A DNA stretch of 64,000 bases from Alphaproteobacteria bacterium (GCA_020049775.1 JAGVLO010000014.1:65945-129944), one strand, 5' to 3'; numbered from the stretch's first letter, positions 18,380-45,864 are shown. The notes: a model not told the origin generated them from the sequence alone. Program-made: numbers and translations.

Positions 18380-18380
18380 T

Positions 18381-27341: not shown

Positions 27342-30300
27342 TCAAAATCTTCCGGTATAGGTATCATTATCTCTTTCTTTCATGCGTTCGATGAAGCGCT
27401 CCAGCCCCACCGGCATCGGCTCATCCGGCGCCACCACTTTCCACGCGTCCAGAAAATGCGTGTAGGCGTCAAGGCGCTTCTGCCGCACACGTTCCTTGGT
27501 CAAGCCCTCTGCTTTCTTGCTGATGACCGGTATAAGCTCATGCAGCATAGGTGCGCGCCCATCCATAAAACCTTCAAAAATGGCAGTGAGAAGTTTCATT
27601 TCCGTATCCGGCAACATATCCAGCGCCATACGCACTTTGGAAAGCGTGTCGGTAACCTCTTCCGGATCATCACGGTCTAGGCGGCGCTCATGGTTGTAAC
27701 GTTGTAGTGAAACCGTATCAATGTTACTGCTGACGTTATCGCCTTCTTCATCATGCGCCTGTGTTGTATCGCTGATAACGGCATGGCCATCAATCGTGCC
27801 TTCTTCTTTTGCTGCATTGTACAAATGCGTGGCTCGCCATTTCGCCATATTGATGGCAAAAGTGCTATAGCGTGCGCCTGCCGGATTCCATCTCGGAAAA
27901 GTATCCAGCACGCCGCCAACAAAGACCTTGTCATCGTCAGAGCTTTCAGCACCTATCCACAGGTCTGTCATCATCAGTTCCTGGTTATTTGCATATTTTG
28001 GCAGGTCTTTGAGTTTTCCAATAGCTGCCTGTGCTATACCCCCGCTATTGGTAGCGATAACGGCTGCCAGTATCATACTTCCCTCCGGATCAGCCAATAA
28101 CAACTTCTTCTGCTGACGCGCTTCTTCTGCAGTTTCTGCAAGTTTGGGTATGCCAATCCTCTCCTTACACGCCCATGAACGCTGGAAGAGCAGCTTGTTT
28201 ACCGCATCAAAAATATTGCCACGCCATTCACCGTTCTTAATATCTTTCTTCGGTGGCGTGGCAACAACGATATGCTTGGCAACAATGCGGAAGGCATGAT
28301 CGATAATCATTGCACCCACATCGCTAGTGCCTAGCTGGCCCGTCAGGAGCGCACGCGCTGTCTTTAATGAATTTTGCGCACTGGTGGGAACTCGCTGTGC
28401 AAATTCGTCAAAGAGCTTCAGGTAAGGTTCACTGTCGCGTGTCAGCGTTTCCCATTCCTGCTTTTGTTTTACCACTTCACCAAGAATTCCACCAATTACT
28501 TCATTACGGTATTGCTTAATATGTTTACCAAAATTCTGTTTGGTATGGCCGCGTTCGGGATTAAAAATGAAATCCATAACTTCAGCTTCAGTCTTGTTAA
28601 GCTGCAGCTTTTCAGCCATTACCGAAAATATTGGAATCAAGCGTTTGTCTTTAAGTAAGGCATCGGTATCCGTTGCTACCGCCTCCGGCAACTGATGTTC
28701 CTTCACCAGATAATCCGGCGTGATATCTGCGAGTATAAACAAATGTTTTAAGCCCTCGCTGCGCTCCATTTGCTGGGTTTCAACCATTTCCATAATACGC
28801 GCTGCATCAGGAATGTAGAGTTTTTGCAATTTTTTCATTCCGGCGGAGTCTTTCGCTAAACCAAACAGCCCACCCAGTTTGTCCAACGCGGCCTTCGGGA
28901 AGGACAACGTCGGCTCATCACCCTTGCAATAGCCTGATAATTGCTGTGCTGGCAGGCCGATAGCTTCCGCCGTTTTTTCCAGCGGCATCGCTGTTTGCTG
29001 GCACATGCGCCGGAGCGCATCCTGAACGCTACAGCGGTGGCTCTCTGCATCCGCCATGATAACGTCTATGGGATCAAGCGTCTGCCCGCTTGCCATGATA
29101 GCGAAGCGACGGCGCTCATCGCCGGTAAAACCGATAAATTCAGCAAAGCGCCCGACATTTTCCATGTCTGCTACAGGCCTTGGCCTCAAAATATCCTCAA
29201 AGCGCTCTATGATTCCTTTGCTCAAGCCAAATGTGCTTTGTACATCCTCACGCCTCAGGTGACGCCGCTTGCGTATTTCAGAACTGATGCTGCCAACCCA
29301 TAATTCCCCCTTTTCTGCCAAATTCAACAGTTGGGCGGGAGAACGCGTCTGTGTAAGTACATCTACCGCCATAAGGGTAGTATCTTTGTCCCCGCCGCCT
29401 GCTTCATTTACCAACATGATGGCTTCGTCCTCCGAACACAAACGAGGCACACTCTTTCTAAGGCCATATTTCATATGACTTAATACCACTGGTGTAACAC
29501 CTATGGTTTGGGCGATATCTGCGTTGGTCTGACTTTTCATTCTGGCAGTCAATTGTTGCACCATATGTCCGGGAGGATCTTCGCTTTCGAGGGCTTCCAG
29601 CACAATATCCCCCAGAGTTTTGGAGAATGTCCGGCCTGTCATCACATCCACGACAGATTTTTTCAATGCCTCCACCTCTTCAGGTGGGGGCGGCATTTCA
29701 TCCCAAATTACATGGGCCAACGCAATATCAGCCAGCCTACGCGCCTGTACCACTTCCTGAATTTTCTTAGGATGATCTTCATCCACCCACTCGAGAAAAT
29801 TGCCTGTTTTTCTGCCAATCATTTCCAGTAACCGATTAGCACTGATACCTGTGGCTCCTATCAGATTCTTTATCAAAGTTCCGCTGTTACCCACGGTAAC
29901 ATGATTTTTAATTTCATCGGCGGTAATGCGGTTTCCATGCGCAAGTTTCCACAGCTTGAGTTCCTGATCCTGATTAATAAACGTACCGCTGATAACTTTT
30001 CGCATCAGTAGATCATGCGGTTTCTGCTCTCCATTCGCCCATGCATAAAATGAATATTTTGATATATGATTATCATCACCCTCCTTACTACCATTGTTCT
30101 CATTGATAAAATTCAGGTAGTTGGCATTAACCGCCCAGGAGTCCAGTATATGATTTATAAATATTGAGAAGGCGTTTTTATGCGCTTCAGGTTCCGCTGC
30201 CGCCTGTAGTTTTTCAAACTCTTCCTCAAGGATCAATTGAAAGCGCCCCGCAGCATCTTTGGCAGAAGAAGGTTGCTTTTCCAGATCTTTGCCTGTCAAA

Positions 30301-31082
30301 AGACTGATAATATCTCTTTGTATTGAAGATAACTGCCAAGACTTCAGTTCTCCACCTGCCTCATCCAGACATTGGGTCATGAATTTTGCAAATTTACCCG
30401 CCAGCTCGACATCACTGCTGATTTTTGGTGACTGCAGATCCGCCCAGCTGCTGATGGTATTGTAAGGAGCGCCAAGTATTTCCCCGAGCCGTTCGTATGT
30501 AAAACCTGATGCCTGTATAAGCATAAAAGCGGCAGCACCACTATGCCCCCGCCTTACCGATTGCATCACCTGAAGAAGCGTCAGGGGTTTGCCCTGAAGC
30601 ATCTTCCACATTTTTTGTTCCTGTTTGGGTGACAAGTCAAATGCATAGGACAGCATGGACATCTGTGTTCCGTCCGGCGCCGATTTATTGTCGAGCCAGC
30701 GTTTCAGTACTGAAACAGGGGGTACCGGCATACGTGTGGGCAATTCATTATCCGGTACCGGAGATGCCATATGCATCTCCTTCAAATAACGTTGTGCCGC
30801 ATATGGCAAATTTCCAGGCAGGAAATCCTTACGCGCCATTTCACGTCGCAGCCGGGTATCAATATTTCGTATTACGGTCTGGCGGAATTGTTCTGGCGTT
30901 ATGTCCCACTCTTGCTCCAGAAGCTGGTGAAGAAATGGGATAAAACGTTGATTGCTACTGAACCCTTTTTCAACCAGATCAGCAAAACTTTCGCGTTCTT
31001 CGCGACCAGCAGGATTATGGGCATGGTGCCTGCTACCATGTCCTGTGGAAACGCCAGCCGTTTTCTTTTCCTTTTGGCTCAT
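27342..31082 (-). CDS. 1246-aa protein: five tandem XRE/Cro-type HTH modules followed by a C-terminal sigma-70-family module (regions 2 and 4)
   Basis: The C-terminal ~250 aa carry FPRWNPAGARYSTFAINMAKWRATHL (compare sigma region 2 FDPxxGxxFSTYAxxWIRxxI). They also carry LPDTEMKLLTAIFEGF...LHELIPVISKKAEGLTKERVRQKRLDAYTHF (region 4 HTH ..ERVRQ..). Upstream there are at least five units of the pattern [S/T]xxxLxxxxGxxxxxxSxW/Y...P....L.K.A...G, for example GFTYERLGEILGAPYNTISSWADLQSPKISSDVELAGKFAKFM and MPLEKTAEAIGLPAQQLSGYCKGDEPTLSFPKAALDKLGGLFGL. Confidence 0.6.
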   Translation of the reverse strand: MSQKEKKTAGVSTGHGSRHHAHNPAGREERESFADLVEKGFSSNQRFIPFLHQLLEQEWDITPEQFRQTVIRNIDTRLRREMARKDFLPGNLPYAAQRYLKEMHMASPVPDNELPTRMPVPPVSVLKRWLDNKSAPDGTQMSMLSYAFDLSPKQEQKMWKMLQGKPLTLLQVMQSVRRGHSGAAAFMLIQASGFTYERLGEILGAPYNTISSWADLQSPKISSDVELAGKFAKFMTQCLDEAGGELKSWQLSSIQRDIISLLTGKDLEKQPSSAKDAAGRFQLILEEEFEKLQAAAEPEAHKNAFSIFINHILDSWAVNANYLNFINENNGSKEGDDNHISKYSFYAWANGEQKPHDLLMRKVISGTFINQDQELKLWKLAHGNRITADEIKNHVTVGNSGTLIKNLIGATGISANRLLEMIGRKTGNFLEWVDEDHPKKIQEVVQARRLADIALAHVIWDEMPPPPEEVEALKKSVVDVMTGRTFSKTLGDIVLEALESEDPPGHMVQQLTARMKSQTNADIAQTIGVTPVVLSHMKYGLRKSVPRLCSEDEAIMLVNEAGGGDKDTTLMAVDVLTQTRSPAQLLNLAEKGELWVGSISSEIRKRRHLRREDVQSTFGLSKGIIERFEDILRPRPVADMENVGRFAEFIGFTGDERRRFAIMASGQTLDPIDVIMADAESHRCSVQDALRRMCQQTAMPLEKTAEAIGLPAQQLSGYCKGDEPTLSFPKAALDKLGGLFGLAKDSAGMKKLQKLYIPDAARIMEMVETQQMERSEGLKHLFILADITPDYLVKEHQLPEAVATDTDALLKDKRLIPIFSVMAEKLQLNKTEAEVMDFIFNPERGHTKQNFGKHIKQYRNEVIGGILGEVVKQKQEWETLTRDSEPYLKLFDEFAQRVPTSAQNSLKTARALLTGQLGTSDVGAMIIDHAFRIVAKHIVVATPPKKDIKNGEWRGNIFDAVNKLLFQRSWACKERIGIPKLAETAEEARQQKKLLLADPEGSMILAAVIATNSGGIAQAAIGKLKDLPKYANNQELMMTDLWIGAESSDDDKVFVGGVLDTFPRWNPAGARYSTFAINMAKWRATHLYNAAKEEGTIDGHAVISDTTQAHDEEGDNVSSNIDTVSLQRYNHERRLDRDDPEEVTDTLSKVRMALDMLPDTEMKLLTAIFEGFMDGRAPMLHELIPVISKKAEGLTKERVRQKRLDAYTHFLDAWKVVAPDEPMPVGLERFIERMKERDNDTYTGRF

Positions 31083-31274: not shown

Positions 31275-31293
31275 AATTTTGGCGGCGCCAGGA
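31275..31293. repeat. Degenerate direct repeat of the tRNA-Gln 3' end (putative distal att site of the island)
   Basis: AATTTTGGC---GGCGCCAGG at 31275-31293 matches AATTTTGGCTGGGGCGCCAGG at 45784-45804 (tRNA 3' end plus 6 flanking nt). That is two exact 9-mers separated by a 3-nt deletion. It lies in the intergenic region between the sigma-like gene and the phosphoesterase-STAND gene. Confidence 0.6.
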
Positions 31294-31470: not shown

Positions 31471-34400
31471 TTATGCCACCTCTTCTGTATTTTTATTTGC
31501 TTGTTGCCGTTTGGGCGCTTGCGATAGAAGCTTAGTTTGCTGTTCGACAGTAATCCCTAGTTTTTGGCAGATTTGCTGTTTAAGGGCATAGTCCGTAGTG
31601 AAAAGATAAAAGTGCTGCCATACAATTCTACGTACGACTGCTAAAGCAAAATTGTTTTTCGCAAACTCTTTGATCAATGCTTCAATTTTTACTTTGGGAA
31701 AGTCTTTATAGTGATCAAGTTTTACCGCCATATCAATCACTTGAACGGTGGCATTATCATTGCCTTTTGCAACCTCATTAAGCGTTTGCTCAGCCTTTTC
31801 TGTTCCTACAGAATCGGAGACATGTTTAATCACACCGCATGTTACAGCTTGTAGTATATTGTAAATAAATCTGTTTATTGAGGTCTGAATTTTAGCTTCA
31901 TCAACTTTCTTACCTCGTGACTTTATGTATTCACTAAGGCCTTCGACCCATTGCGGCATCGATTTTTCGGCATTATCAAAAATATCTCCTAAGACACGCA
32001 ATCCCAGACCATAGCATTCCTCAACTAGCTGACGTTTGGGATCGCCACGCAATGAACCAGTAAAGTTTCTTAGAACCTGCCCCAAAATCTGAATAGTCTT
32101 AAATGCCGCATTATGTGCGAGCTGTGGAGTTAACTCGTCCGCACACTCTGATGCCGCGCACATGTGAGCAATACTACCTGTGTGTCTACCATTCTGCTCA
32201 TCACGAGACTCAAGTGCTTTATTTTGGTTTTCACGAGGATCGCGTGCAGCCAACATAATTTTAGGGAGATCGACATTCAGCTTATTGAAAAATTCAGAAT
32301 TTTTGGAAACATCGAATCTTGCTGTTTCAGTAAACAGATTTCTTGCTGCTGCTAACATCGCATTGAGCACTCGATCATCCTTTGAAAGGTGACAGAGAAA
32401 AATCATGATATTTGCCGATTCTTCATGATAAAGACGTCGGCTCAAATCATCAATGCGAGATTGAATTGTATCTTCATTGATATGATCTCGGAAATATCGA
32501 CCAACGAAGAAATAATACAGATACTTATAGCGGAACTTATATTCGCCATGCCTATTGTCCATTACTTCTGCTTCTACCAGTTCACCTAATAGGTCATCGA
32601 AGTCGAATGTTAGGCGGTATTCTGCCGTATATTTTTTATGCCAATCGCGCATCTCCTCTAAAGTTAATGAATGACGTTGATTGTTATACAAATAGTACGA
32701 AAATTCCGTAAGATAGTTATATTTAGCGTCAATATCAATTTTGGGATTTCTTTTGCGAGCAAGACTAGCAGTAACTAGAACTTCATATAAATACCCAAAT
32801 GAGCCTGATTGAGTGGTCAGCTTCGATGCAATCTCAAGTTGCTGCAATAATATAAGGACATAAGTCGGAAAAGAAGGAATAAAGTCGATACTGATAACTG
32901 TAGAAATCTGATCCTCTGCTCGCTTAATGGCACGCTGAGTTTCAATCTCGTTATCAGTATAGTTTTTTCCTAAACGACACCATTTTTCAACAAGCCTATG
33001 CCGTAAGACATAGCCAAATTGGAGAATCGAACATTGCTTAAAGTCCAATAAATGGGATTTTTCCTCGTCTCCTGCCATTGACAGTTCTTCCAGACGCAGC
33101 TCCTCTCCACCCAAGAAGACAACATGACCGAATAAATCTTTAAGCACACCAGCGATTACGCTACGTCCGCTTCGGTTAAATGGTGTTTTATGAAAATCAT
33201 CTACAATTACAACTCTACGATCTTTATCAAGCTGCCAATATTTATCCACACGACCTGATCCGTACTGCGTCTCTACTTGTTCAGTTGCACGTTTGCGTAT
33301 TTTATCAATATCTGGTTGCTTATGAAATTGCTCTCCATTGAGCAGAACTGGCACTTTACCATTACGCTGAAGATCTTTTACAAGCGTTTTAGCCAATGAA
33401 GTCTTGCCTGCTTTTTCCTCGCCAAGAAACAGTACATAAGTATTATTCAGAATATGCGTTAAAAGATTGCTTCCGCGAACTAGTACACCTTCTGAGCCTT
33501 CCTGAGTGAGGCTTATTTCACGTACGTCAGGATAGATAAAAATATCATTGAGAGTTACGGGGTCTTTGTGAGGATGGGTGTAACCAGCACCAGCATCTTC
33601 AAGTACATTATAAAAGCTATCGGTAAAATCAAACTGCTTGCGTACTAATCGCTTATTCCGCTCGAAAGGACGCCAGAGCGCCTCTCCTTCAGGTGCATAC
33701 CCATCTCCTACCAGCTCAAAACGATGGGTTTGCTGCTCACCTTTGGCTGTATCAAAAATAACAACATTAAAGGTGCTATTATCAGCAGAATGACTATCTT
33801 GTAGTACACCACCTTCAAGATATTCGTTTTGTTCTCCTTGATCGGTACATTTCTGATAAGCTCCTGGCACATGTTCATGTCCAGTTAATATGAGATCGGT
33901 ATTATCTTCTAATATCTGCCTAAGCTGACGAGCATTTTCGGCAGAATACCAATTAAAGGGATGGTGAAGGACAGCAACAGCAAGGTCAGCCTGTCCAGCG
34001 TTTGTGATTTTATCTTTTAGTATATCTACTGGATAATAGAGATTGCCTTGCTTTTCTTCTTTTTGAGATCCCCATGCAGAATTTACAAGGTGAAACACTA
34101 CTCTTTTGCTAGCAACCGGAAGTTCCACACGGCGATATAGTTTATCGTAACTCGTTGTAAGGGCATTATTTGTAGGAATATGTTTGTTTGCAAACTCAAA
34201 ATAATGATTTTGAGCGTCAGTGCATGCATTAAAAACTGCCTCATCCAATTGCCCCGGCTTTACACTGTCGATTAAAATATTCCTAACTGAGGTGTTTTGT
34301 CCAAAGTGGCAATCATGGTTGCCCGGAATGGTTAAAACTGAAAAATTGGTAGGATTAAAAGTATCCTTAAGGACAGATTTAATATCTTGGATAAGCTCTT

Positions 34401-34590
34401 CAGCAAAAGCATATTCGCCAGGACTGCCAGAGAACGCTATATCACCTGAAATGACAAGCACTCCATGAGAAACTCCCATACAAACAGAGGCTACTGCACG
34501 TCCTATAGCAGCACCGTGCTGAAGGATTGGGTTAGCTTCGCGTGCTGCTTTAAGGTGTATATCGCTTAATTGGACGAGAGCAATTTGCAT
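31471..34590 (-). CDS. Calcineurin-like metallophosphoesterase domain fused to a STAND/NACHT-like P-loop NTPase and a ~570-aa helical C-terminal region (1039 aa)
   Basis: All five phosphoesterase motifs are present: D10-I-H12, G49-D50, G90-N-H-D93, H209-H210 and G237-H-E-H240. Walker A is G390-EEKAGKTS (nt 33397-33423) and Walker B is RRVVIVDDF (458-466). After the NTPase comes a FRYKYLYYFFVGRYF-type helical segment. The gene is AT-rich. Confidence 0.65.
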   Translation of the reverse strand: MQIALVQLSDIHLKAAREANPILQHGAAIGRAVASVCMGVSHGVLVISGDIAFSGSPGEYAFAEELIQDIKSVLKDTFNPTNFSVLTIPGNHDCHFGQNTSVRNILIDSVKPGQLDEAVFNACTDAQNHYFEFANKHIPTNNALTTSYDKLYRRVELPVASKRVVFHLVNSAWGSQKEEKQGNLYYPVDILKDKITNAGQADLAVAVLHHPFNWYSAENARQLRQILEDNTDLILTGHEHVPGAYQKCTDQGEQNEYLEGGVLQDSHSADNSTFNVVIFDTAKGEQQTHRFELVGDGYAPEGEALWRPFERNKRLVRKQFDFTDSFYNVLEDAGAGYTHPHKDPVTLNDIFIYPDVREISLTQEGSEGVLVRGSNLLTHILNNTYVLFLGEEKAGKTSLAKTLVKDLQRNGKVPVLLNGEQFHKQPDIDKIRKRATEQVETQYGSGRVDKYWQLDKDRRVVIVDDFHKTPFNRSGRSVIAGVLKDLFGHVVFLGGEELRLEELSMAGDEEKSHLLDFKQCSILQFGYVLRHRLVEKWCRLGKNYTDNEIETQRAIKRAEDQISTVISIDFIPSFPTYVLILLQQLEIASKLTTQSGSFGYLYEVLVTASLARKRNPKIDIDAKYNYLTEFSYYLYNNQRHSLTLEEMRDWHKKYTAEYRLTFDFDDLLGELVEAEVMDNRHGEYKFRYKYLYYFFVGRYFRDHINEDTIQSRIDDLSRRLYHEESANIMIFLCHLSKDDRVLNAMLAAARNLFTETARFDVSKNSEFFNKLNVDLPKIMLAARDPRENQNKALESRDEQNGRHTGSIAHMCAASECADELTPQLAHNAAFKTIQILGQVLRNFTGSLRGDPKRQLVEECYGLGLRVLGDIFDNAEKSMPQWVEGLSEYIKSRGKKVDEAKIQTSINRFIYNILQAVTCGVIKHVSDSVGTEKAEQTLNEVAKGNDNATVQVIDMAVKLDHYKDFPKVKIEALIKEFAKNNFALAVVRRIVWQHFYLFTTDYALKQQICQKLGITVEQQTKLLSQAPKRQQANKNTEEVA

Positions 34591-34786
34591 AAAGAGTCCT
34601 TATTTGTTACCAATTCCTTAATAGCTAGTTTAATACCTTAAAGTAGATTTTCATAAGAGTTTTTGTGAACTTTACCATCTTAATATATTACCTAATTTTT
34701 ACCATTTCACTTTGTTACAGTATGGTTCTGGGTGTCACCTATCAAATAGGGAATACCCTGAAAAGCGCCCCCTACAGCAAACAATT

Positions 34787-36424
34787 CTAGCTCTTTGAAG
34801 CCTTGCTGACTGGTAACAACGGTAACTCAAGCTCCTTCAAGAACTCATTGTGCTTATTGAAAGCCACGCCGATTTTTTGTTCTAGGCCTTGTAGCGTTTC
34901 ATGCACTACTTCCAGCTTAATTTCCTCTTCTGCTTCTGCTGTGCTGATATAGCGTGAGATGTTTAGATTATAGCCGTGTTTTTCGCATATTTCCTCCAGA
35001 GAAACCTTCTTTGAATAACGATCCTCCTCCGTTCGGAATTGATAGGTTTTTACAATCTTTTCGATATGTTCTGGCAGTAGCTGATTTTGCCGTTTGCCTT
35101 TAGCAAAATTGTCTTCACCGCTGGCATTGATGAACAGCACATCATCTGGCTTTTTGCATTTCTTCAGCACAAGAATGCACACGGGAATGCCGGTGGAGTA
35201 GAAGAGATTGGCTGGCAGGCCGATCACGGTATCGATATGACCGTCATCCAGCAGTTTTTGGCGGATACGCTCTTCCGCTCCACCACGGAACAGCACGCCG
35301 TGCGGCAGGATGATAGCCATCGTGCCTTCATGCTTCAGGTAATGAAAGCCATGCAGCAGGAAGGCAAAATCTGCCGCCGATTTAGGCGCTAGGCCATGGC
35401 TCTTAAAGCGAGAATCATCCGCCATTGCCTCAGTGGTTTCCCAGCGATAGCTAAACGGAGGATTGGCTACAATCGCATCAAAAGCTGGCTTCTTCGCTGG
35501 GTTCTGTTCGCGGAGTATGTCCCAGTCATTTTCTAACGTATCACCGTGAAAAATCTCGAATTCAGTATCCTTTACTCCATGCAGCAGCATGTTCATGCGT
35601 GCGAGGTTGTAGGTGGTGATATTTTTTTCCTGCCCATAGATTTTGCCAACAGTACCGCCTTCTTTTTTTATCTGATTACGCACATTGAGCAGCAACGATC
35701 CCGAACCACAGGCAAAATCTAAAACGCTATCCAGATGTTTTTTCTTGCCGAGCTTGGGGTCTTGGCTATCCAGCGTCACGATGGCGGAAAGAATGGTGGA
35801 GATTTGCTGTGGGGTGTAGAACTCGCCAGCCTTTTTGCCCGAACCTGCCGCAAACTGGCCAATCAGATATTCATAGGCATCGCCCAACGCGTCTTGATCC
35901 GTTGAGAATCTGGATAGCCCTTCTGCAATTTTGGTGATAACCGTGCAGAGCTTCGTATTGCGATCCTTGTAGGTCTTTCCCAGTTTATCAGATGCTAGGT
36001 TAATCTCCGAGAACAGCCCCTGAAAAGTGCTGTCGAACGATTCATTTTCAATGAACTTGAAACCCTCCTGAAGGGTATGCAGCAACTCGTCATCCTGCCT
36101 GCGTGCCATTTCTGCGATGTTGCCCCAGAGGTGATCGGGCTTAATGACATAATGCACCCGACGGCGCAGGAGGTCTTCAAACGCCTTTACGTCGTCAGGG
36201 TTTTCTTCATACCAGCGTTGCAGCGGGGTGGTATGACCATTAGGTGCAGGATATTCTTTTCCCAACTCTTTTTTTGCAGCTGCTTCGTAATTGTCCGAAA
36301 GATAGCGCAGGAAAAGGAATGAAAGCATATAATCGCGGAAATCATCCGCGTTCATTGCGCCGCGCAGCTGATCCGCGATTGCCCAGAGGATTTTCCCCAA
36401 TTCCTTTTGTTGTTCTTCGGTCAT
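34787..36424 (-). CDS. hsdM: Type I restriction-modification system, DNA methyltransferase subunit M
   Basis: N-terminal HsdM domain LWAIADQLRG...DFRDYMLSFLFLRYLS, AdoMet motif DFACGSGSLLL, and catalytic IVANPPFS. Its ATG overlaps the stop of the upstream gene (ATGA). Confidence 0.93.
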   Translation of the reverse strand: MTEEQQKELGKILWAIADQLRGAMNADDFRDYMLSFLFLRYLSDNYEAAAKKELGKEYPAPNGHTTPLQRWYEENPDDVKAFEDLLRRRVHYVIKPDHLWGNIAEMARRQDDELLHTLQEGFKFIENESFDSTFQGLFSEINLASDKLGKTYKDRNTKLCTVITKIAEGLSRFSTDQDALGDAYEYLIGQFAAGSGKKAGEFYTPQQISTILSAIVTLDSQDPKLGKKKHLDSVLDFACGSGSLLLNVRNQIKKEGGTVGKIYGQEKNITTYNLARMNMLLHGVKDTEFEIFHGDTLENDWDILREQNPAKKPAFDAIVANPPFSYRWETTEAMADDSRFKSHGLAPKSAADFAFLLHGFHYLKHEGTMAIILPHGVLFRGGAEERIRQKLLDDGHIDTVIGLPANLFYSTGIPVCILVLKKCKKPDDVLFINASGEDNFAKGKRQNQLLPEHIEKIVKTYQFRTEEDRYSKKVSLEEICEKHGYNLNISRYISTAEAEEEIKLEVVHETLQGLEQKIGVAFNKHNEFLKELELPLLPVSKASKS

Positions 36425-37518
36425 GCCGCCACCTCCGCGTGTAATTTGAAATTGTATTTTGCTTTGAGCTTATCAAACACCTCTTTGAAAAGTTCCGTGT
36501 TATCAGGATTCATTACTTCCGTCTGATAATGATAAACCTTTTGGTGAGAGAGAGTATTGATGATCCGAGTCACTTGTTCAGTGTCTTCGATCCCTATCTG
36601 GTTAAGCACATACCCAAATTGTCCAACACCTAAGAACGAAGCGATATTCTCAAGAATCTGGCGCAACAGTGCAAAATGGAACGTGTAGAGCTGTTCGGCC
36701 TGCGCTTTTTCCAGTGTTTGCAGTAAGTGCAAATGATATAGGAAAACATCGTTCTTTGGACTTTCAAGCGTCAAATCACCCGACTTCTGGCTCAGGATAA
36801 AGAGCTTGGTTAGCTTCCTGTATCTTTCACTTTTGTCGCCTTTGGTCAGCCAATCCGCAAGGATTGAGAAAAAGCCAATGTGATGGGTGGTGATGATAAA
36901 TTTTCTGTTTTTGTAGTGCGTTTCAATCAAATCATAAAGGGTTGAGGCAGTGATGAAGATATTGTGATCATCTAAGCTAGAAACAGGATCATCAATAAAG
37001 AAGTGGCTGGATTGCTGATCTGTCCAGCCCTCAACCTCGAACAAAGCCAAAAAGAAGCACCAAACGAAAATGCGTTCTTCACCTCTGGAGATTTTTATTC
37101 TTTTTCTGTCGGGGTCATCTGGCAAAAAGAAGAATATCGACTCAATCCCATCCACTAAATTGGCATGAAGCACAAATTCAAAATCATACTGTGGCTTGAA
37201 TGGCTTTAGCTTCTCACGGACTTTATCTTCATCTATAAAGCTATGATATTGATTTAAGCTACTCCCATTCACAATCAGCTGGGTTTCTGGTTCATTCTCC
37301 CACACAAAAAGGTCTTCGCTGTAAGCATTATAATAAACGCCCGTGTGTTGCTCTTCCTGCTTGGTTGCATCTTTGTACGCCACTGACAGGCGAGTCTTTC
37401 CAGTGGCGTTAAACGCATAAATCAAGACGATTTTGACGTCTTCCTCTCTCGCCGCCCCTCTGTCGTGAATAGTATTTTTTAAGTCTTTTAATTGGCCTGC
37501 GATTTCTGAAAGTTCCAT
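36421..37518 (-). CDS. PrrC/Rlo-like ABC-type ATPase embedded in the hsd operon (putative anticodon nuclease)
   Basis: Motifs: Walker A AFNATGKTR; ABC-signature-like ISRGEERIF; Walker B FFIDDPVSSLDDHN; and ITTHH. The C-terminal LLRQILEN...NTLSHQ gives an R-x3-E...H arrangement like the Arg/Glu/His anticodon-nuclease triad of E. coli PrrC as I recall it. It sits between hsdS and hsdM, as prrC sits inside the EcoprrI locus. Confidence 0.55.
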   Translation of the reverse strand: MELSEIAGQLKDLKNTIHDRGAAREEDVKIVLIYAFNATGKTRLSVAYKDATKQEEQHTGVYYNAYSEDLFVWENEPETQLIVNGSSLNQYHSFIDEDKVREKLKPFKPQYDFEFVLHANLVDGIESIFFFLPDDPDRKRIKISRGEERIFVWCFFLALFEVEGWTDQQSSHFFIDDPVSSLDDHNIFITASTLYDLIETHYKNRKFIITTHHIGFFSILADWLTKGDKSERYRKLTKLFILSQKSGDLTLESPKNDVFLYHLHLLQTLEKAQAEQLYTFHFALLRQILENIASFLGVGQFGYVLNQIGIEDTEQVTRIINTLSHQKVYHYQTEVMNPDNTELFKEVFDKLKAKYNFKLHAEVAA

Positions 37519-37521
37519 TTC

Positions 37522-38730
37522 TTAGCCCTCACTTTCATTTGAGGGGACAGGGAAGAGTTGCTGCATCAGCCCTATTTTATGACCTCGCAGCGCATCGAGT
37601 TTTTGGCTTTGGGCGGCGATGAGATCGTCGATAGAGGATAATAGGTCAGCAATATATTGCTGCTCTTTTTTGCTCTTTGGATAAGGTATCGGGATGCTCT
37701 TGAGTTTTCCCAGAGTAAGCTTAGGAGGTGCTTTACCCGTCGTAAATGGAGTAATATCAAGTCTCACCAGATAATTTTCCAATAGTGTGTCGTTGATTTC
37801 TATTGGTTTTAATACGTGGGCATGGTTGTTAACCCAGTATTTGCCATCCGCTATAAATGCTGTTTTCTCATATGCTCCCCACTTTGCGCCATCTTCTCCA
37901 ACTAATACCAATCGTTCATTGAAAATATAGTCATCAATGTAGTCAACAATGCCGCTTGCGCCGTAATAGGGATATTCGCCTTTTTCTCTGTACTCGCTTG
38001 AGATCGGTTTTCTACGATTATTAAGAACATCGCAAACTTTCTCTAAAGGTTTAAAATTCCACTCTGGGGCGTCCTTAAACTCAGGAAAGCGGCGTTTGGG
38101 CAGGGTTTCACCTTCGGCGGGGAAGAGTTCCTGCATCAGCCCTTTTTTATGACGCTGAAGGGCATCCAGCTTTTGATCTTCCACCTCGATCAACTCGTCC
38201 AGCGATGTCAAGCAATTGCTTATGCGTCGTTGCTCAGGTAGAGAAGGTAATAGCGTTTTCCAAGAACGAAGGACATTCAAATACAGCCTTGTTCGAGTTC
38301 CGCCTTTCTTTTGTTCAAAAGCAAGCTGCTTAAAGTCGTCACCATAGTTCAATTTATATAAAAGGAATTCTGCGCTTAGATTTACTGTTTTGAAAACAGG
38401 ATATTCCTTACTAACAGCTATAGAAGAACCAGTCTTATTAATGTTAAATTTGAATGATCCATCATCACTCATATGGCGATAAACAAAGTAATTTTCTGGC
38501 ACCACGCCATATTCGCCCTCATTAGCTAATTCTCTGTTGTCAAAGTAATCTTTCTGAAGTTTAAGTCCTGTTCTGGTTGAGCTATAAATCGGAAGTTCAG
38601 TGCTGGCGGACACTCTTTCAGCATATTCTTCTAAGTAGGGGGCTAATGCTTTATATTCCCAGTCACCGCTAAACTCAGGAAATCGTAGCTTAGGCCGAAC
38701 AACTTTCTCGCTCTTGGTTTTATTGCTCAT
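37522..38730 (-). CDS. hsdS: Type I restriction-modification system, specificity subunit S
   Basis: Two target-recognition domains are each preceded by (L)R/KFPEF and followed by the conserved helices LPEQRRISNCLTSLDELIEVEDQKLDALQRHKKGLMQELF and KKEQQYIADLLSSIDDLIAAQSQKLDALRGHKIGLMQQLF. Confidence 0.92.
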   Translation of the reverse strand: MSNKTKSEKVVRPKLRFPEFSGDWEYKALAPYLEEYAERVSASTELPIYSSTRTGLKLQKDYFDNRELANEGEYGVVPENYFVYRHMSDDGSFKFNINKTGSSIAVSKEYPVFKTVNLSAEFLLYKLNYGDDFKQLAFEQKKGGTRTRLYLNVLRSWKTLLPSLPEQRRISNCLTSLDELIEVEDQKLDALQRHKKGLMQELFPAEGETLPKRRFPEFKDAPEWNFKPLEKVCDVLNNRRKPISSEYREKGEYPYYGASGIVDYIDDYIFNERLVLVGEDGAKWGAYEKTAFIADGKYWVNNHAHVLKPIEINDTLLENYLVRLDITPFTTGKAPPKLTLGKLKSIPIPYPKSKKEQQYIADLLSSIDDLIAAQSQKLDALRGHKIGLMQQLFPVPSNESEG

Positions 38731-41716
38731 AGGCGTTTAACCCCGATATGGTGCGCCCGTGGGAAAGTTTGTGCAGCAGTGGGGCCAAATCCTCTACCAA
38801 TGCCAGCTCTTTCTGTGTGCGGTCTTTCCAGCCCAGTTCCAGCGGTGCCAGTAATTCACTCAGTTGTTCGCCATCAAAAATCATGCGACGGAGAATACCA
38901 TCCACAAATTCTTGTAGGCTGGCAGCTTCCAGCCCGTGCTTATCTGCAATCACGGCCAGCGCCTTGGCATTTTTTCCCGCTTTGAAGTTGGCGTAACCAT
39001 CGCGGATTGCTTTCTCGCTCAGGCCTTCGCCTTCCTTTAGGGAATAGATGTACTCCTTAATGTCCTCATGCTCATCCATAAACTTAGCATCAGAGGCAAT
39101 GAGGCCAATCAACTGATCGCGGCTCATTTTCAGTTTACCCTTGGTGCCTTGGGAGTATTTGGCAATCAGTGCCATGATGTAGTCATAATCAATCACGGCG
39201 GAGGCAAAGAGCACGAACTCAAAATCCAACTGCTGCACTTCGGGCGAGGTATTCTCGCCGCCCTTATCCTGCTGGGCTTTAAGGCGCTGCGCGGTTTCGA
39301 TATACACGCCCTTGAAGCCTTGTAGCTGCTCTTTAGGGATCACCTGCTCGATGGTTTGTTTCTGCTCGTCGTTCAGGTCGGTGTATTGATCCAGCTGGGT
39401 TTTGAGGCGCTGCACATCCTTAAACAGGTTGATGAACTGGCTGCGTGCGGCGTCGCCTTTCAGGTTTGGCACATCCTCTGGCTTGTTTTCCAGCCCTTGT
39501 GATTTCATGAACTCGTCGAGGTTCTTGATGGCTCCATCAAGCTTCGCAATCACCACCGGCGCTTTATCCACCAGCCAAATTTCCTTGGCTTGTTCAGAGC
39601 TTGCGCCAGAAAACAGCGCAATCGCAGTATTCACGGCATCTTCTTGCTGCCGGAACTCAAGGATATTGCCATAGGGCTTGGTATCGTTCAGCACACGATT
39701 TGTGCGCGAGAATGCCTGAATCAGCCCGTGGAATTTGAGGTTTTTGTCCACATACAGGGTGTTCAGGTATTTGGAATCAAAGCCCGTAAGAAGCATATCC
39801 ACCACGATCACAATGTCGATCTTCTGCGCGTGTGGGAAATCTTGGTTAGGGTATTGCTGGTCTTTGATACGTTTCTGCACATCCTGATAATACAGATCAA
39901 ACTCAACAATGCTGTGGTTGGTTTTGTAGCGTTTGTTGTAATCCGCAATGATGGCTTTTAGCGCGGTTTCTTTTTCTTTGGGGTTTTTCTTGTTGTCTTC
40001 TCTTTCCTGCGGCAGGTCTTCCTGCATTTGCTTGGCGTCATTACTGCTTTCGGCGGGGGGAGAGAACACGCAGGCGATGTTCAGCGGCTGAAAGCCTTCA
40101 GTTGTTGGCTGCCTTTTATTCTGAATGTCCTTGAAAAGATTGTAATATTCAATCGCATCATTGATCGACGCGGTAGCCAGAACAGCATTAAACCTGCGCC
40201 CGTTGGTTGCGGCATCGTGTTTTTCAAGAATGGCCTCAACAACTGCTTTCTTTAACGGAGGATCTCCGGGTTTGGCTTTCTGCACGCCTTCTGGCTTGTA
40301 GTAATCGATATGGAAGCGCAGCACATTGCGATCTTCAATCGCGTGAGTAATGGTGTATTGGTGCAGCTGCTTTTGGAAGATGTCTTCTGTAGTTTTATAG
40401 GAAGCCTGCTCACCTTCAACCTGCTGATAGGTAGCGTTTTGTTCAAAGATTGGTGTTCCCGTGAAACCAAACAGCTGGGCATTGGGGAAGAATTCTTTGA
40501 TAGCTTCGTGACTGTCACCGAACTGCGAACGATGGCATTCATCAAAAATAATCGCCATACGCTTGTTGCTCAGCGGTTCAAGGCGCTCTGTATATGTTTC
40601 CTTGCCCTGCTTTTGTTTTGCTTTGTTTCGTTTGCTGTTTTCGTTCAGTGCCAGCCCCAGCTTCTGGATGGTGGTGACAATTACTTTATCGGCATAATCA
40701 TCCGATAGCAGGCGCTGCACCAGTGTTTCGGTGTTGGTGTTTTGCTCAACGCAGCCCTCTTGAAAGCGATTGAACTCTTCACGGGTTTGCCGGTCGAGGT
40801 CTTTTCGATCTACCACGAAGAGGCATTTTTCAAGGTCTGGATTGTCCTTTAGTAGTGTAGATGCCTTGAAGGATGTCAGGGTTTTGCCGCTGCCGGTAGT
40901 GTGCCAGATGTAACCATTGCCACAGCGTTGGTGGATGCACTCCACAATCGCTTTCACCGCATAGATCTGGTAAGGGCGCATCATAAGCAGTTTCTGCTCG
41001 CTGGCAACCAGAACCATATATTGGCTGATCATTTGCCCAAGCGTGCATTTGGTGAGGAACTTCTCGGCGAAATTATCAAGCTGGGTGATTTTCTTGTTGT
41101 CCTCGCTGGCGAACTGGTAAAGCGGCAGGAAGCGTTCATCCGCATCAAAGCTGAAGTGGCGGCTGTTGTTGTTGGCGAAATACCAAGTATCTGTGCGGTT
41201 GCTGACGATGAATATCTGTAGGAAACACATCAGCGTTTTGCCGTAACCATTGCCGGGATCGTTTTTGTAATCGACGATCTGCTGCATGGCGCGGCGCGGG
41301 GTGATCTGTAGGGTTTTCAATTCCACCTGCACGACCGGCACGCCGTTAATCAGCAGAATTACATCATAGCGATGGTGGCTGTTGTCTGTGTTAATCCGCA
41401 GCTGATTGATCACTTCAAAGGTGTTTTTGCACCAGTCCTTGATATTCACCAGCGTGTAATTCAGCGGTGTTCCGTCATCGCGTTCAAAGCTGTTGCGCTC
41501 TCTTAGCGTGCGTGCGGCAGCATACACATCTGGCGTGACGATGATTTCCAGTAAACGTGAGAACTCGTTATCTGTGAGCTTAACCTTGTTAAGTTCCTCG
41601 AACTTTTCGCGGAAATTTCTTTCCAGCGCGGCGCGATCACGAATATCATCGCGATAAAGGTATTTAAGATCACTCAGTTTGCTGATCAGATCTTGTTCAA
41701 TTTGTTGTTCTTTCAT
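38720..41716 (-). CDS. hsdR: Type I restriction endonuclease subunit R (helicase-nuclease)
   Basis: An N-terminal HSDR_N-like region is followed by SF2 helicase motifs HTTGSGKTLTS and IFDECHRSQ, then TGTPIF. Total 998 aa. It overlaps the hsdS start by 11 nt. Confidence 0.93.
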   Translation of the reverse strand: MKEQQIEQDLISKLSDLKYLYRDDIRDRAALERNFREKFEELNKVKLTDNEFSRLLEIIVTPDVYAAARTLRERNSFERDDGTPLNYTLVNIKDWCKNTFEVINQLRINTDNSHHRYDVILLINGVPVVQVELKTLQITPRRAMQQIVDYKNDPGNGYGKTLMCFLQIFIVSNRTDTWYFANNNSRHFSFDADERFLPLYQFASEDNKKITQLDNFAEKFLTKCTLGQMISQYMVLVASEQKLLMMRPYQIYAVKAIVECIHQRCGNGYIWHTTGSGKTLTSFKASTLLKDNPDLEKCLFVVDRKDLDRQTREEFNRFQEGCVEQNTNTETLVQRLLSDDYADKVIVTTIQKLGLALNENSKRNKAKQKQGKETYTERLEPLSNKRMAIIFDECHRSQFGDSHEAIKEFFPNAQLFGFTGTPIFEQNATYQQVEGEQASYKTTEDIFQKQLHQYTITHAIEDRNVLRFHIDYYKPEGVQKAKPGDPPLKKAVVEAILEKHDAATNGRRFNAVLATASINDAIEYYNLFKDIQNKRQPTTEGFQPLNIACVFSPPAESSNDAKQMQEDLPQEREDNKKNPKEKETALKAIIADYNKRYKTNHSIVEFDLYYQDVQKRIKDQQYPNQDFPHAQKIDIVIVVDMLLTGFDSKYLNTLYVDKNLKFHGLIQAFSRTNRVLNDTKPYGNILEFRQQEDAVNTAIALFSGASSEQAKEIWLVDKAPVVIAKLDGAIKNLDEFMKSQGLENKPEDVPNLKGDAARSQFINLFKDVQRLKTQLDQYTDLNDEQKQTIEQVIPKEQLQGFKGVYIETAQRLKAQQDKGGENTSPEVQQLDFEFVLFASAVIDYDYIMALIAKYSQGTKGKLKMSRDQLIGLIASDAKFMDEHEDIKEYIYSLKEGEGLSEKAIRDGYANFKAGKNAKALAVIADKHGLEAASLQEFVDGILRRMIFDGEQLSELLAPLELGWKDRTQKELALVEDLAPLLHKLSHGRTISGLNAYEQ

Positions 41717-41765: not shown

Positions 41766-42848
41766 TTATAGACTATCAGCGGCAAGTTTCAGCAATTTCT
41801 TTAGTTGTGCTGTATCAGCATTTTCTTGCTTCTTCAAACCCTTAATGATTTCACATTGCCGGTACGGTTCGATCTGTCCATAACTGCCCCAAGTGGTCAG
41901 CACACTTTCATGCCCTAGATTTTGGCTCCATGCCTTAAAATCTTCGGGGGTTTTGCAGTAATCCTTTGCCACATGCCCTAGCGTATGCCGAAAAGAATGG
42001 GGGTTGAAATAAGGCAGCCCAGCCGCTTCAAATGCCTGTCGGAATATTTTGCACATCGGAGCGGCAGTACTCCAGTGTTCTTTGCTGAGTCCATCCGGCT
42101 GAAAGCCGTTGATGACATCTGGAACTATGCGGGTTTTGGGAAACAATGGGTCATCCGGGCTGAACAATTTTTCCTTCACCAGATATTCCGCCCATTCCAA
42201 TACAACCGCCTTGAAGTCATCCCCTATAGGGAAAAACCCAGTAATAATGGTTTTGCTACGCTTTGTATGTACCTCATCCGGGTACTGTGTTACCATCCAC
42301 TTGTGAGTGTCCAGATGTTTCAGGCTCATGGATATAATGGCGCTATCCCTTGCGCCAGAGACGATAGTAAATGCTATCAACGCCCGGTTACGTTTCTGAA
42401 TATCGGTATCGGCAGGCATGGCCTGTACCGTTGCCCGGATTTGTTCTAAGGAAGGAAATGGTCGTAATTTCATGCTATGCGCTATTTTTACATCTCTTGC
42501 TGTAAGGTTCAGGTAGCCAATATCGAGCGGGTCTATTTTTGATTTATAACCATCTTGCATGGCTAGCCATTTAAAAAATTCCTGAATGCTCCTGACGGTG
42601 GAAAGCATGGTTGCCTTGGTAAGTGGAGCATCGCCACGGGCAGTTTTTAGTCCCATCAGGTGCTTCTTGAACCCTACCGCCTGTTCCCTGTTGAAAGTGG
42701 AAAAATCCTTGAAGTTATTATATTCTTCAAAACGCCGGATGGCTTTGCAGATGCCGTCAATGGCACTTTCACTCTTGCCGTCCACCTCAATCCGATAGCG
42801 ATAGTATTCTTCCTTAATTCGTTCATTTCTAGCAGTGTAATTTTTCAT
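41766..42848 (-). CDS. Tyrosine recombinase (phage-integrase family), second recombinase of the island
   Basis: Catalytic-domain landmarks: IVSGARDSAI (Arg), HSFRHTLGH (H-x-x-R), and GHESVLTTWGSYG (His...Tyr). Confidence 0.85.
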   Translation of the reverse strand: MKNYTARNERIKEEYYRYRIEVDGKSESAIDGICKAIRRFEEYNNFKDFSTFNREQAVGFKKHLMGLKTARGDAPLTKATMLSTVRSIQEFFKWLAMQDGYKSKIDPLDIGYLNLTARDVKIAHSMKLRPFPSLEQIRATVQAMPADTDIQKRNRALIAFTIVSGARDSAIISMSLKHLDTHKWMVTQYPDEVHTKRSKTIITGFFPIGDDFKAVVLEWAEYLVKEKLFSPDDPLFPKTRIVPDVINGFQPDGLSKEHWSTAAPMCKIFRQAFEAAGLPYFNPHSFRHTLGHVAKDYCKTPEDFKAWSQNLGHESVLTTWGSYGQIEPYRQCEIIKGLKKQENADTAQLKKLLKLAADSL

Positions 42849-42863
42849 GGTTTACCGGCTCCT

Positions 42864-43367: not shown

Positions 43368-43545
43368 TCAGGGTGCGGATGTCTTCGGCACGCCATGCGG
43401 TGATGCGCTCACCCAGCTTTACGGCTTTTGGATAACGGCCAGTTTTAACACCAGCCCACCATGTAGATTTGCTCACGGGAATAACGGCAAGCACGGCAGG
43501 GAGCCGCATAAAACCAGTGGAAGGAATGGAAGAATTGTTTTGCAT
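43339..43545 (-). CDS. alpA: AlpA-family phage/island transcriptional regulator (excisionase-like HTH)
   Basis: FMRLPAVLAVIPVSKSTWWAGVKTGRYPKAVKLGERITAWRAEDIRTLI matches the AlpA/MerR-type pattern (RLPEV...S.ST.Y......FPKP.KLG.R...W...E...W). Confidence 0.85.
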   Translation of the reverse strand: MQNNSSIPSTGFMRLPAVLAVIPVSKSTWWAGVKTGRYPKAVKLGERITAWRAEDIRTLIEKTNIPAQ

Positions 43546-43751
43546 AGTGCTACTCCGTTTGTTGAAGAACAGTCGGAGTTATGCACGTCCAGCAGCAATA
43601 GAATAGATGGGCGGGTTCAAAAAAACTTGCCCACGCAAAATGCCGATAATCCCCTAGGGTTCATTAAGAACAGGTGGGGTGATAAAACGTAAGAAATTAA
43701 ATTCAAAATTAGATAACCAATATATTACAGTACTATAAATGGGTGGGTAGG

Positions 43752-44406: not shown

Positions 44407-45663
44407 CTATATCTTGCAGGATTTCCTTACAATATCCTTTTGCCGTCTGGCTCCTGCATCTAGATAATCTGCCCACCATTGCATCATTTTTTGGCGTTCG
44501 GGTAGGTACTCGGCATGGTTATAGGCTCCCCTCACTTTGTTGCCCTGCACATGAGCAAGTTGGCGTTCTATAGCATCACCTTTAAATAAGCCACTTTCGT
44601 TAAGTATGGTAGATGCGGTATGCCGGAAACCGTGCCCAGTCGTACGGTTATGATAGCCCATGCGATAAAGTGCATAAAGCACTGCATTTTCGCTCATGTG
44701 TTTGATTGGTTTATGGGGGTTGGGGAATACATATTTCCACTGTCCATTGAGTAACTTGAGCTCTTTGAGTGCAGCAACGGCTTGTTTTGAGAGCGGCACA
44801 ATATGCCCACGGCGCATTTTCATACGCTCGGCTGGGATACGCCACTCGGCTTTATCCAAATCTATTTCATCCCAAGTAGCCCCGCGTAGTTCTGTAGTGC
44901 GTACAAAGGTAAACATTAGTAGCTTTACGGCCAGCTTGGTTTGTAAATTACCGTCATAAGCTTCTAATTTTTCCAAAAATTCCGGCAATTCAATTTCTTT
45001 AAGATGGGCATAATTCTTTTTGACATGTGTCTTGAGTGCCCCTTTCAGGTCAGTAGCAGGATTCCGTTCAACTCGACCAGTGGCAATGCCATACATAAAA
45101 ATTTGGCTGCAATATTGCATTGCACGGTTGGCGAGTTCTAGCGCCCCGCGTTTCTCAATGATGCGTATTACGGACAACAGTTCGGGAGCGGTAATGTCTT
45201 TAATGGGGCGGCTGCCCAGCTTGGGGAAAAGGTCGTTTTCAAGCCGTTTATTCAGAAAACCTGTATAGCGTGGCGTCCAGGCAGCACTTTTCGCAGCAAT
45301 CCATTCACGTGCTATTATTTCAAAGTTGTTTTCGGCTGAGACCAGTGCCTGCCGTTTCACGGCCTTCCGTGTCTCGGAAGGGTCTTGCCCATCAGATACG
45401 AGTTTACGGGCATCTATAAGTTTGAGCCGCGCTTCTGCGAGACTGACTTCAGGGTATACGCCCAAGGAGAGTGATTTTTCTTTCCCAAGATAGCGGTATC
45501 TATATGCCCAATACTTACTGCCATTGGGGTAAACCAGTAAGGCAAGACCGTTGCCTCCACTTAGTTTTTTGACGCTTTTACCAGGCTTTGCGCTTTTGAC
45601 CGCTATATCTGTGAGTATTTTCATAATGTGGGTGAAAGAGTTTATGATTTTGGTTTCACCCAC
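44407..45663 (-). CDS. int: P4-type (DUF4102-containing) tyrosine integrase adjacent to tRNA-Gln
   Basis: LTDIAVKSAKPGKSVKKLSGGNGLALLVYPNGSKYWAYRYRYLGKEKSLSLGVYPEVSLAEAR is the classic N-terminal arm-binding domain. The C-terminus has TTGHGFRHTASTILNE and LAHVQGNKVRGAYNHAEY. The real start is probably MKILTD at 45624. Confidence 0.93.
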   Translation of the reverse strand: MGETKIINSFTHIMKILTDIAVKSAKPGKSVKKLSGGNGLALLVYPNGSKYWAYRYRYLGKEKSLSLGVYPEVSLAEARLKLIDARKLVSDGQDPSETRKAVKRQALVSAENNFEIIAREWIAAKSAAWTPRYTGFLNKRLENDLFPKLGSRPIKDITAPELLSVIRIIEKRGALELANRAMQYCSQIFMYGIATGRVERNPATDLKGALKTHVKKNYAHLKEIELPEFLEKLEAYDGNLQTKLAVKLLMFTFVRTTELRGATWDEIDLDKAEWRIPAERMKMRRGHIVPLSKQAVAALKELKLLNGQWKYVFPNPHKPIKHMSENAVLYALYRMGYHNRTTGHGFRHTASTILNESGLFKGDAIERQLAHVQGNKVRGAYNHAEYLPERQKMMQWWADYLDAGARRQKDIVRKSCKI

Positions 45664-45730: not shown

Positions 45731-45789
45731 TAAATTGGCTGTTTTTATGGGTTAAATCGGACTATATCGTCCATTGCCGGATTAAATTT

Positions 45790-45864
45790 TGGCTGGGGCG
45801 CCAGGGATCGAACCTGGGAATGGCGGTACCAAAAACCGCTGCCTTACCGCTTGGCTACGCCCCA
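45790..45864 (-). tRNA. tRNA-Gln (anticodon UUG), CCA encoded
   Basis: The reverse complement reads UGGGGCG-UA-GCC-AAGCGGUAA-GGC-A-GCGGU-UUUUGGU-ACCGC-CAUUC-CCAGG-UUCGAUC-CCUGG-CGCCCCA-G-CCA. It folds as a cloverleaf, has anticodon loop UU-UUG-GU, and is close to E. coli tRNA-Gln as I remember it. Confidence 0.93.

Follow-up and report, generated by a model that had tools for sequence, protein, structure and literature searches.

DS-8 is a single-protein anti-phage system of Escherichia coli that combines a metallophosphatase with a NACHT domain (PMC13092281). It was named and validated by DeWeirdt et al. in the 'DefensePredictor' study (bioRxiv January 2025; Science 2026). The protein (WP_032203427.1, 1014 residues) comes from an E. 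coli ECOR strain, is annotated as 'metallophosphoesterase' and carries the working name MNAC (PMC13092281). Expressed alone from a low-copy plasmid in E. coli MG1655, DS-8 protects against many coliphages (PMC13092281). The efficiency of plating drops by 5.6 logs for Bas1, 4.1 logs for Bas19 and 3.7 logs for Candy, by 2-2.6 logs for Bas11, Bas25, Bas26 and SECphi17, and by ~1.2-1.3 logs for T4 and T5 (PMC13092281). Defence is abolished in the mutants D52A, N84A and K375A (Table S11 of PMC13092281), and an HHblits comparison relates DS-8 to bNACHT01 with a probability of 99.8 (PMC13092281). The same family has been listed by PADLOC as the phage-defence candidate PDC-S60 since its 2023 release; the PDC set consists of 145 untested candidates embedded in BREX, DISARM and type I restriction-modification (R-M) systems, collected by a guilt-by-embedding approach (Payne et al., bioRxiv 10.1101/2024.01.29.577857). 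Calcineurin-type phosphoesterases were already among the effectors predicted for STAND NTPases by Kaur et al. in 2021 (PMC8195603). Here we describe a gene for a 1039-residue protein on the minus strand of a 64,000-nucleotide stretch of DNA from Alphaproteobacteria bacterium (GCA_020049775.1 JAGVLO010000014.1:65945-129944; hereafter, the window). Judged from its sequence, this gene very probably encodes a divergent member of the DS-8/PDC-S60 family, a stand-alone NLR-like anti-phage protein, and is the outermost cargo of a ~14.5 kb island at a tRNA-Gln gene.

An initial annotation of the window had proposed a single 1039-residue gene at 31471-34590, and both the list of open reading frames (ORFs) and the translation agree with it. 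This is not a chance ORF, as it is scored at 1026 bits and at E 6e-105 by the hidden Markov models (HMMs) of its family. The first of these scores, 1026.5 bits against an equivalog cut-off of 790, is that of the NCBIfam model NF053861 ('DS8_antiphage'), which aligns from end to end, with residues 7-1013 corresponding to profile positions 1-994 of 994. Two PADLOC models of PDC-S60 also match, PDLC05050 (E 5.8e-105; residues 322-1022, profile positions 192-897) and PDLC05051 (E 4.3e-28; residues 45-795). Apart from PDC-S60 and a weak mad8 match, the PADLOC scan of the window protein returned nothing. A BLASTP comparison with the first 399 residues of DS-8, which are given in Table S8 of PMC13092281, yields an E-value of 1e-44 and 26% identity over the N-terminal 420 residues. 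The alignment pairs D50, N91 and K396 of the window protein with D52, N84 and K375 of DS-8. The DNA of the gene has no match among 5,426 complete E. coli genomes, in either near or distant searches, and the window gene is therefore not a close copy of E. coli DS-8.

The reading offered by the initial annotation, that of a STAND-type, NLR-like immune protein with a phosphoesterase effector, is supported by these results and, for a relative, E. coli DS-8, has been established experimentally. Its further suggestion, that the protein might be undescribed, with no named defence family known to it for such an effector, is not supported in view of NF053861, PDC-S60, the validation of DS-8, the Pfam family nSTAND_NTPase4 and the predictions of Kaur et al. 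(PMC8195603). Of the profile searches that it had suggested, those with Pfam Metallophos and the PADLOC models gave matches and that with Pfam NACHT did not, and the mutants that it had proposed are essentially the published D52A, N84A and K375A of DS-8. The window protein is no novel kind of system, and the questions of substrate, trigger and C-terminal fold belong to the entire DS-8 family more than to this locus.

The protein is collinear with DS-8: in both cases, one gene of ~1014-1039 residues encodes an N-terminal metallophosphatase, then a P-loop NTPase of the NACHT-like kind and lastly a helical C-terminal part. We assessed conservation in an alignment of 70 homologues that are 30-55% identical to the window protein. 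The N-terminal domain matches Pfam Metallophos (PF00149) over residues 6-242 (36.3 bits against a cut-off of 21.5; E 1e-8), and its translation contains the five calcineurin-like phosphoesterase motifs at the residues originally assigned to them, namely DIH (10-12), GD (49-50), GNHD (90-93), HH (209-210) and GHEH (237-240). The residues D10, H12, G49, D50, G90, N91, H92, D93, H209, H210, G237, H238, E239 and H240 are invariant in all 70 homologues, and so are G395 and D464 of the NTPase. The Walker A lysine, K396, is nearly invariant, being kept in at least 90% of the homologues. Thus, the equivalents of all three residues that are essential in DS-8 (D50, N91 and K396) are kept here.

The Walker A (GEEKAGKTS, residues 390-398) and Walker B (RRVVIVDDF, residues 458-466) motifs of the central module are likewise found in the translation as first annotated. 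Pfam nSTAND_NTPase4 (PF24406) matches residues 641-696 (E 1.2e-15), at the winged-helix region. The initial annotation had also pointed to a winged-helix-like aromatic segment, FRYKYLYYFFVGRYF (residues ~683-697). In a full-length AlphaFold2 model built on the 70-sequence alignment, which is confident with a predicted local distance difference test score (pLDDT) of 87.7 and a predicted template modelling score (pTM) of 0.71, this segment forms the second strand of a hairpin and the start of the next helix. The model places helices at 644-658 and 664-673, a β-hairpin at 677-680/683-686 and a helix at 689-702. The helix-helix-hairpin just upstream is covered by nSTAND_NTPase4, so the aromatic segment would lie at the winged-helix part of the STAND module, and the original description is confirmed by this match and by the modelled hairpin. 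In Foldseek searches of the PDB, the central module of the model retrieved NOD2, NLRC4, NLRP3 and NAIP5 at E-values of 2.5e-8 to 3e-6, and Avs4 at 1.5e-5. On the strength of these matches, the NTPase is predicted to be NLR-like in fold, which, together with nSTAND_NTPase4, agrees with its original assignment to the STAND class.

The C-terminal ~340 residues have no Pfam match and are all-helical in the model, much as the initial annotation had described them (helical, with no recognisable motif). Modelled in isolation, they again form an all-α domain (pLDDT 91.7, pTM 0.88). The structural search that had been suggested for this region thus gave a confident model but no solved structural relative: Foldseek retrieved from the PDB only non-significant hits to generic helical repeats and 14-3-3 proteins, with an E-value of 0.12 at best. 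In conservation the domain equals the catalytic ones (mean identity 0.33, compared with 0.32-0.36), and it aligns without gaps. It contains the invariant residues D797, G837 and R865, as well as a family motif near 'AFKTIQILGQ(I/V)LRNF'; the final ~20 residues of the protein are disordered and unconserved.

The overall organization, an effector followed by a STAND NTPase and a C-terminal domain, is that of bacterial NACHT and Avs proteins, and the fold of the NTPase is near to those of NOD2, NLRC4, NLRP3 and Avs4. However, no PADLOC model of Avs (AVAST) types 1-5 matches the window protein, its C-terminal domain is not of the TPR, LRR or WD40 kind, and a metallophosphoesterase takes the place of their nuclease, SIR2, TIR or protease effectors. 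DS-9A has a related metallophosphatase, whose catalytic residues are needed for its defence activity (PMC13092281), and the NCBIfam model DS9_1_antiphage matches residues 29-134 of the window protein (E 4e-7). This match scores 29 bits against a cut-off of 420, and DS-9A differs in that it has no STAND module and belongs to a two-gene system, DS-9, in which a HAD phosphatase partner is required. The best full-length Foldseek match is Bacillus subtilis YydB (PDB 9a6c_B, an integrative YydD-YydB model; E 2.3e-14), which superposes on the full-length model with a template modelling (TM) score to the target of 0.53 over 628 alignment columns; YydB, however, is an independent polypeptide of only 481 residues whose partner is YydD. 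In a fold search of viral structures, no full-length relative was found, only generic metallophosphatase and Mre11-Rad50 matches.

These features suggest how the protein may work. In uninfected cells it would be a resting monomer, whose conserved all-helical C-terminal domain would sense an infection cue. As in NLR and Avs proteins, the NACHT-like P-loop module, whose Walker A lysine E. coli DS-8 cannot do without, would then bind ATP and oligomerise. Oligomerisation would turn on the N-terminal binuclear metallophosphoesterase, which keeps the catalytic residues that E. coli DS-8 requires, and the hydrolysis of a phosphoester or phosphoanhydride substrate would end phage production.

As to the substrate, the N-terminal domain shares its fold and the motifs DxH, GD, GNHD, H and GHxH with GpdQ, the class III phosphodiesterases Rv0805/CpdA, purple acid phosphatase, SMPDL3A/B and Mre11/SbcD, although identity to these enzymes is only 13-16% and none carries a fused STAND NTPase. 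Foldseek matches of the domain in the PDB include GpdQ, purple acid phosphatases, Lmo2642, Rv0805 and Mre11, and in profile and fold searches together GpdQ, purple acid phosphatase, Rv0805 and Lmo2642 rank ahead of Mre11/SbcD. Because the profile and fold neighbours lean to small-molecule phosphodiesterases and phosphatases, a nucleotide-type substrate is favoured over nucleic acid. A TIR-metallophosphatase-STAND fusion within the family was counted toward the same side, and Kaur et al. place effectors of the calcineurin type alongside domains that process nucleotides and NAD (PMC8195603). The substrate may be a small nucleotide, the protein acting through pool depletion or signal destruction and not through bulk cleavage of DNA or RNA; the balance of the evidence leaves this an even proposition. 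More tentatively, the window protein, whose deep branch of the DS-8 family is only ~26% identical to the tested E. coli protein and has its nearest relatives at 55% identity, might differ in its action from the nuclease, NADase and protease effectors known for bacterial NLR-like proteins. Its structurally unmatched C-terminal domain would be a new kind of sensor, and its metallophosphoesterase would act on a small nucleotide, through loss of a pool or of a phage-dependent signal, although we think this rather unlikely.

The same DS-8-type protein could instead have an activated effector that acts as an Mre11/SbcD-like nuclease on phage or host DNA or RNA, in the manner of the nuclease effectors of Avs proteins, which appears possible but doubtful. 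Searches with the family profile retrieve Mre11 and SbcD at E 5e-4, Foldseek does so at E 6e-7 to 1e-5, Mre11/SbcD-like proteins are found among the viral fold matches, nucleases are generally the commonest effectors of Avs and bacterial NACHT proteins, and the range of protection by DS-8 is broad (PMC13092281). However, the small-molecule enzymes have higher scores and superpose better on the window protein (TM scores to the target of 0.55-0.65, compared with 0.31-0.41 for Mre11), and neither an Mre11-type capping domain nor a Rad50-like partner was found. Furthermore, the closest structures reported for DS-8 by its authors are the nucleotide phosphodiesterases SMPDL3A/B (HHpred match to 5KAR_A, probability 0.997; PMC13092281), which for the window protein are absent from the top 50 Foldseek and the top 60 profile matches.

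Several observations temper the assignment to the DS-8 family as an NLR-like defence protein with a nucleotide-type substrate. At 26% identity to E. coli DS-8, the trigger and the substrate here could differ from those of the validated system. The Pfam NACHT model (PF05729) does not match the window protein at E≤1, and faint matches to it were recorded for three homologues only (P0100, P0108 and P0111). The class of the NTPase accordingly depends on the source, being nSTAND4 by Pfam and NACHT by the authors of DS-8. The conservation of the C-terminal domain fits a conserved ligand, but it would equally fit a structural or autoinhibitory role. Lastly, the order in which the metallophosphatase neighbours rank is a poor guide to the class of substrate, as Mre11 and SbcD match too, at E-values of 1e-6 to 1e-4.

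Relatives were collected in three ways. GTDB species representatives of many phyla contain 361 relatives. A word-indexed protein search gave 354 relatives, the nearest of which is metagenomic and 55% identical, and an exhaustive search with residues 322-1039 gave 2976 clusters at 50% identity (E≤0.001). The family occurs in Chloroflexota, Myxococcota, Acidobacteriota, Planctomycetota, Bacillota, Bacteroidota, Verrucomicrobiota, Nitrospirota and Proteobacteria, among others; its distribution is patchy, extends over more than 15 phyla and shows no conserved neighbourhood. Some homologues lie among defence or toxin-antitoxin-like genes, for example beside a SNF2/PLD helicase, an Eco57I-type methylase and a HepT/MNT pair (L005), or adjoining an MNT/HEPN pair and a transposase (L006). 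Others are found within a serine-recombinase element that splits a Mg-chelatase gene (L004), in a region resembling a conjugative element (L008), or as cargo of a Tn7-like transposon (TnsB/TniB/TniQ/TnsE) beside a CAP12-PCTIR TIR protein (L007, 1-13096). At loci L073 and L037 (6200-16100), from Akkermansia muciniphila and a proteobacterial metagenome-assembled genome, the homologue sits between hsdM and hsdR. Ordinary housekeeping neighbours surround the homologues at L002 and L003.

The 144 ORFs that flank homologues at ~80 loci most often match the Pfam families Phage_integrase (7), Methylase_S (5) and AAA_21 (3), counts that are descriptive and, having no matched background, do not amount to a formal enrichment. 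No recurrent partner emerged from eight annotated contexts and these 144 ORFs, whose 132 Pfam families are each represented by at most 7 ORFs, and the window gene resembles DS-8 in being a single gene without a conserved partner. The initial annotation had proposed to examine whether homologues are enriched near defence genes; descriptively, their settings are variable and often mobile or defensive.

The family also varies at its N-terminus. One homologue from a JGI metagenome (P0111, 1233 residues) is the TIR-metallophosphatase-STAND fusion mentioned above. In three others (P0135, P0158 and P0254), the same chassis is preceded by ~100-130 residues without a Pfam match, which replace the metallophosphatase; some of these may be truncated gene calls. 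The PDC-S60 model PDLC05050 aligns with the window protein from residue 322 only, and its seeds therefore seem to bear a shorter, different N-terminus ahead of the shared NTPase and C-terminal part. Taken together, the variants and this alignment suggest a modular chassis.

The window gene differs from E. coli DS-8 in its host and in its island, where it comes immediately after hsdM of a type I R-M operon with an embedded PrrC and has the same orientation. The initial annotation had noted this neighbour, which is indeed directly upstream, and the position next to a type I R-M system fits the way in which PDC-S60 candidates were found. One may ask whether the gene is an accessory of that operon, for example a back-up when restriction is inhibited, rather than autonomous. 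Besides its position, the embedding of PDC-S60 genes in BREX, DISARM or type I R-M systems, the two homologues between hsdM and hsdR and the HsdS-type products of 5 of the 144 flanking ORFs would be in keeping with such a role. The idea is nonetheless improbable: E. coli DS-8 protects by itself in MG1655 (PMC13092281), R-M genes occur within 10 kb at only about 7 of 88 homologue loci, and the window gene has its own AT-rich upstream region of 196 bp and a ribosome-binding site. The latter, a Shine-Dalgarno sequence AAGGA at 34597-34601, lies 6 nt 5' of the ATG. A consensus scan also located a weak sigma-70-like site at 34710-34682 that agrees with the consensus at 9 of 12 positions and may serve as a promoter.

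The limits of the island were defined by synteny and by its attachment repeats (Table 1). In a related genome, a giant helix-turn-helix (HTH) protein is flanked by CutA1 and MurJ on one side and by isocitrate dehydrogenase on the other, with no island in between. Since the HTH protein adjoins CutA1 in this islandless relative, the island of the window must end between 31082 and 31471. Once synteny had narrowed the boundary, a remnant of the tRNA-Gln 3' end was found there, identical to 45785-45805 at 18 of 21 positions with a gap of 3 nt; elsewhere in the window, the tRNA-Gln 3' end has no copy, exact or with up to 3 mismatches. The distal copy being 3 nt short suggests that the island may no longer excise precisely. 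The island (31.28-45.80 kb, ~14.5 kb) consists almost wholly of defence cargo, and its genes run leftward from the tRNA-Gln as integrase, two orphan ORFs, a Xer-like recombinase, hsdR, hsdS, prrC, hsdM and the DS-8 homologue. The stop codon of the latter is ~180 bp from the degenerate copy of the tRNA-Gln 3' end, with the integrase and the tRNA at the opposite end, ~10-11 kb away. Hence, the description of the gene as the first cargo gene holds when the island is read from its distal end. Its AT-richness is also evident: the GC content is 0.39-0.42 over 31-35 kb, compared with 0.45-0.49 in the remaining island and 0.50-0.60 in the flanking core.

It is most improbable that the protein has no immune role here, whether as a STAND signalling ATPase with a housekeeping phosphoesterase output, as the neighbours at L002 and L003 might hint, or as an inactive passenger of the island: the ORF is intact with every catalytic and Walker residue conserved, its score exceeds the equivalog cut-off of a validated defence family, the low-GC island was acquired horizontally and is absent from the close relative, and the family is spread patchily across phyla in varied neighbourhoods.

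DS-8 family anti-phage protein is an appropriate label for the window gene, and the region 31.28-45.80 kb can be annotated as a tRNA-Gln defence island that carries a DS-8 homologue and a type I R-M system with PrrC. As a divergent member with a confident model and conserved catalytic residues, the protein offers a useful second system in which to examine what DS-8 acts on and what triggers it.

Table 1. Features of the DS-8 homologue and its island, in window coordinates.
Feature	Position	Strand	Basis
DS-8-family coding sequence, 1039 residues + stop	31471..34590	-	ORF list and translation, ATG start
Metallophosphoesterase (calcineurin-like) effector domain, residues 1-300	33691..34590	-	Pfam, alignment, Foldseek
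Effector-NTPase linker, residues 301-370, with conserved H339 and P354	33481..33690	-	Invariant alignment columns, secondary structure of the model
P-loop nucleotide-binding domain, residues 371-525; Walker A G395-K396-T397, Walker B D464-D465	33016..33480	-	Translation, conservation, Foldseek
STAND helical domain and winged-helix domain, residues 526-700	32491..33015	-	Pfam PF24406, model
All-α C-terminal domain, residues 701-1039, presumed sensor/regulatory	31474..32490	-	Separate AlphaFold model, conservation
Spacer 5' of the DS-8 homologue, 196 bp, AT-rich, between the gene and hsdM	34591..34786	-	Sequence
Type I R-M operon with embedded PrrC, order hsdR-hsdS-prrC-hsdM	34787..41716	-	Pfam and PADLOC
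hsdM	34787-36424	-	MTase_I 1.9e-153
prrC	36421-37518	-	PADLOC PrrC 5.6e-102
hsdS	37522-38730	-	Specificity_I 5e-78
hsdR	38720-41716	-	REase_I E 0
P4-type tyrosine integrase	44407..45663	-	Pfam Arm-DNA-bind_3, Phage_int_M, Phage_integrase
tRNA-Gln (UUG), integration site, proximal boundary	45790..45864	-	ARAGORN
Distal boundary, degenerate direct repeat of the tRNA-Gln 3' end, AATTTTGGC(-3 nt)GGCGCCAGG	31275..31292	+	Alignment with 45785-45805

Other genes of the island deserve brief mention. PrrC has 365 residues, and Pfam AAA_13 spans only residues 137-349. An internal direct repeat of 80 nt (75% identity) is present in hsdS at 37550-37629 and 38120-38199, and represents the conserved regions that hsdS genes usually carry in duplicate around their two target-recognition domains. 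Between hsdR and the integrase (41766-44378, minus strand) are a second tyrosine recombinase, which is Xer-like and 360 residues long, and two orphan ORFs of 167 and 208 residues that belong to no family. These three may serve in the excision or regulation of the island.

The giant HTH protein next to the island (27342-31082, minus strand) has 1246 residues, or 1142 by the start in the NCBI record, with XRE-type HTH motifs in the middle of the protein. It has no match in the PDB, NCBIfam or PADLOC, and 5.8 billion proteins include just three relatives, which share 56-60% identity with it and belong to related genomes. Its gene is part of the core and borders immediately on the island. A 470-residue ORF (25901-27313, minus strand), which has no match in Pfam, NCBIfam or PADLOC, lies between it and isocitrate dehydrogenase. 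At the syntenic site, the related genome has only a 48-residue ORF, and the 470-residue ORF looks like a separate small insertion or variable gene. Both proteins were considered as partners of the DS-8 homologue and rejected, the HTH protein being core in the relative that has no island. Further away, at 13041-21572 (minus strand), is a cluster of NAD-salvage-like genes that are unusually large and divergent and whose proteins all score under the NCBIfam equivalog cut-offs. It encodes NAPRTase-like (656 residues) and nicotinamidase-like (403 residues) proteins, a fusion of CN-hydrolase and NAD-synthase (1222 residues) and a B12-type radical SAM protein (464 residues), and it is kept in the related genome.

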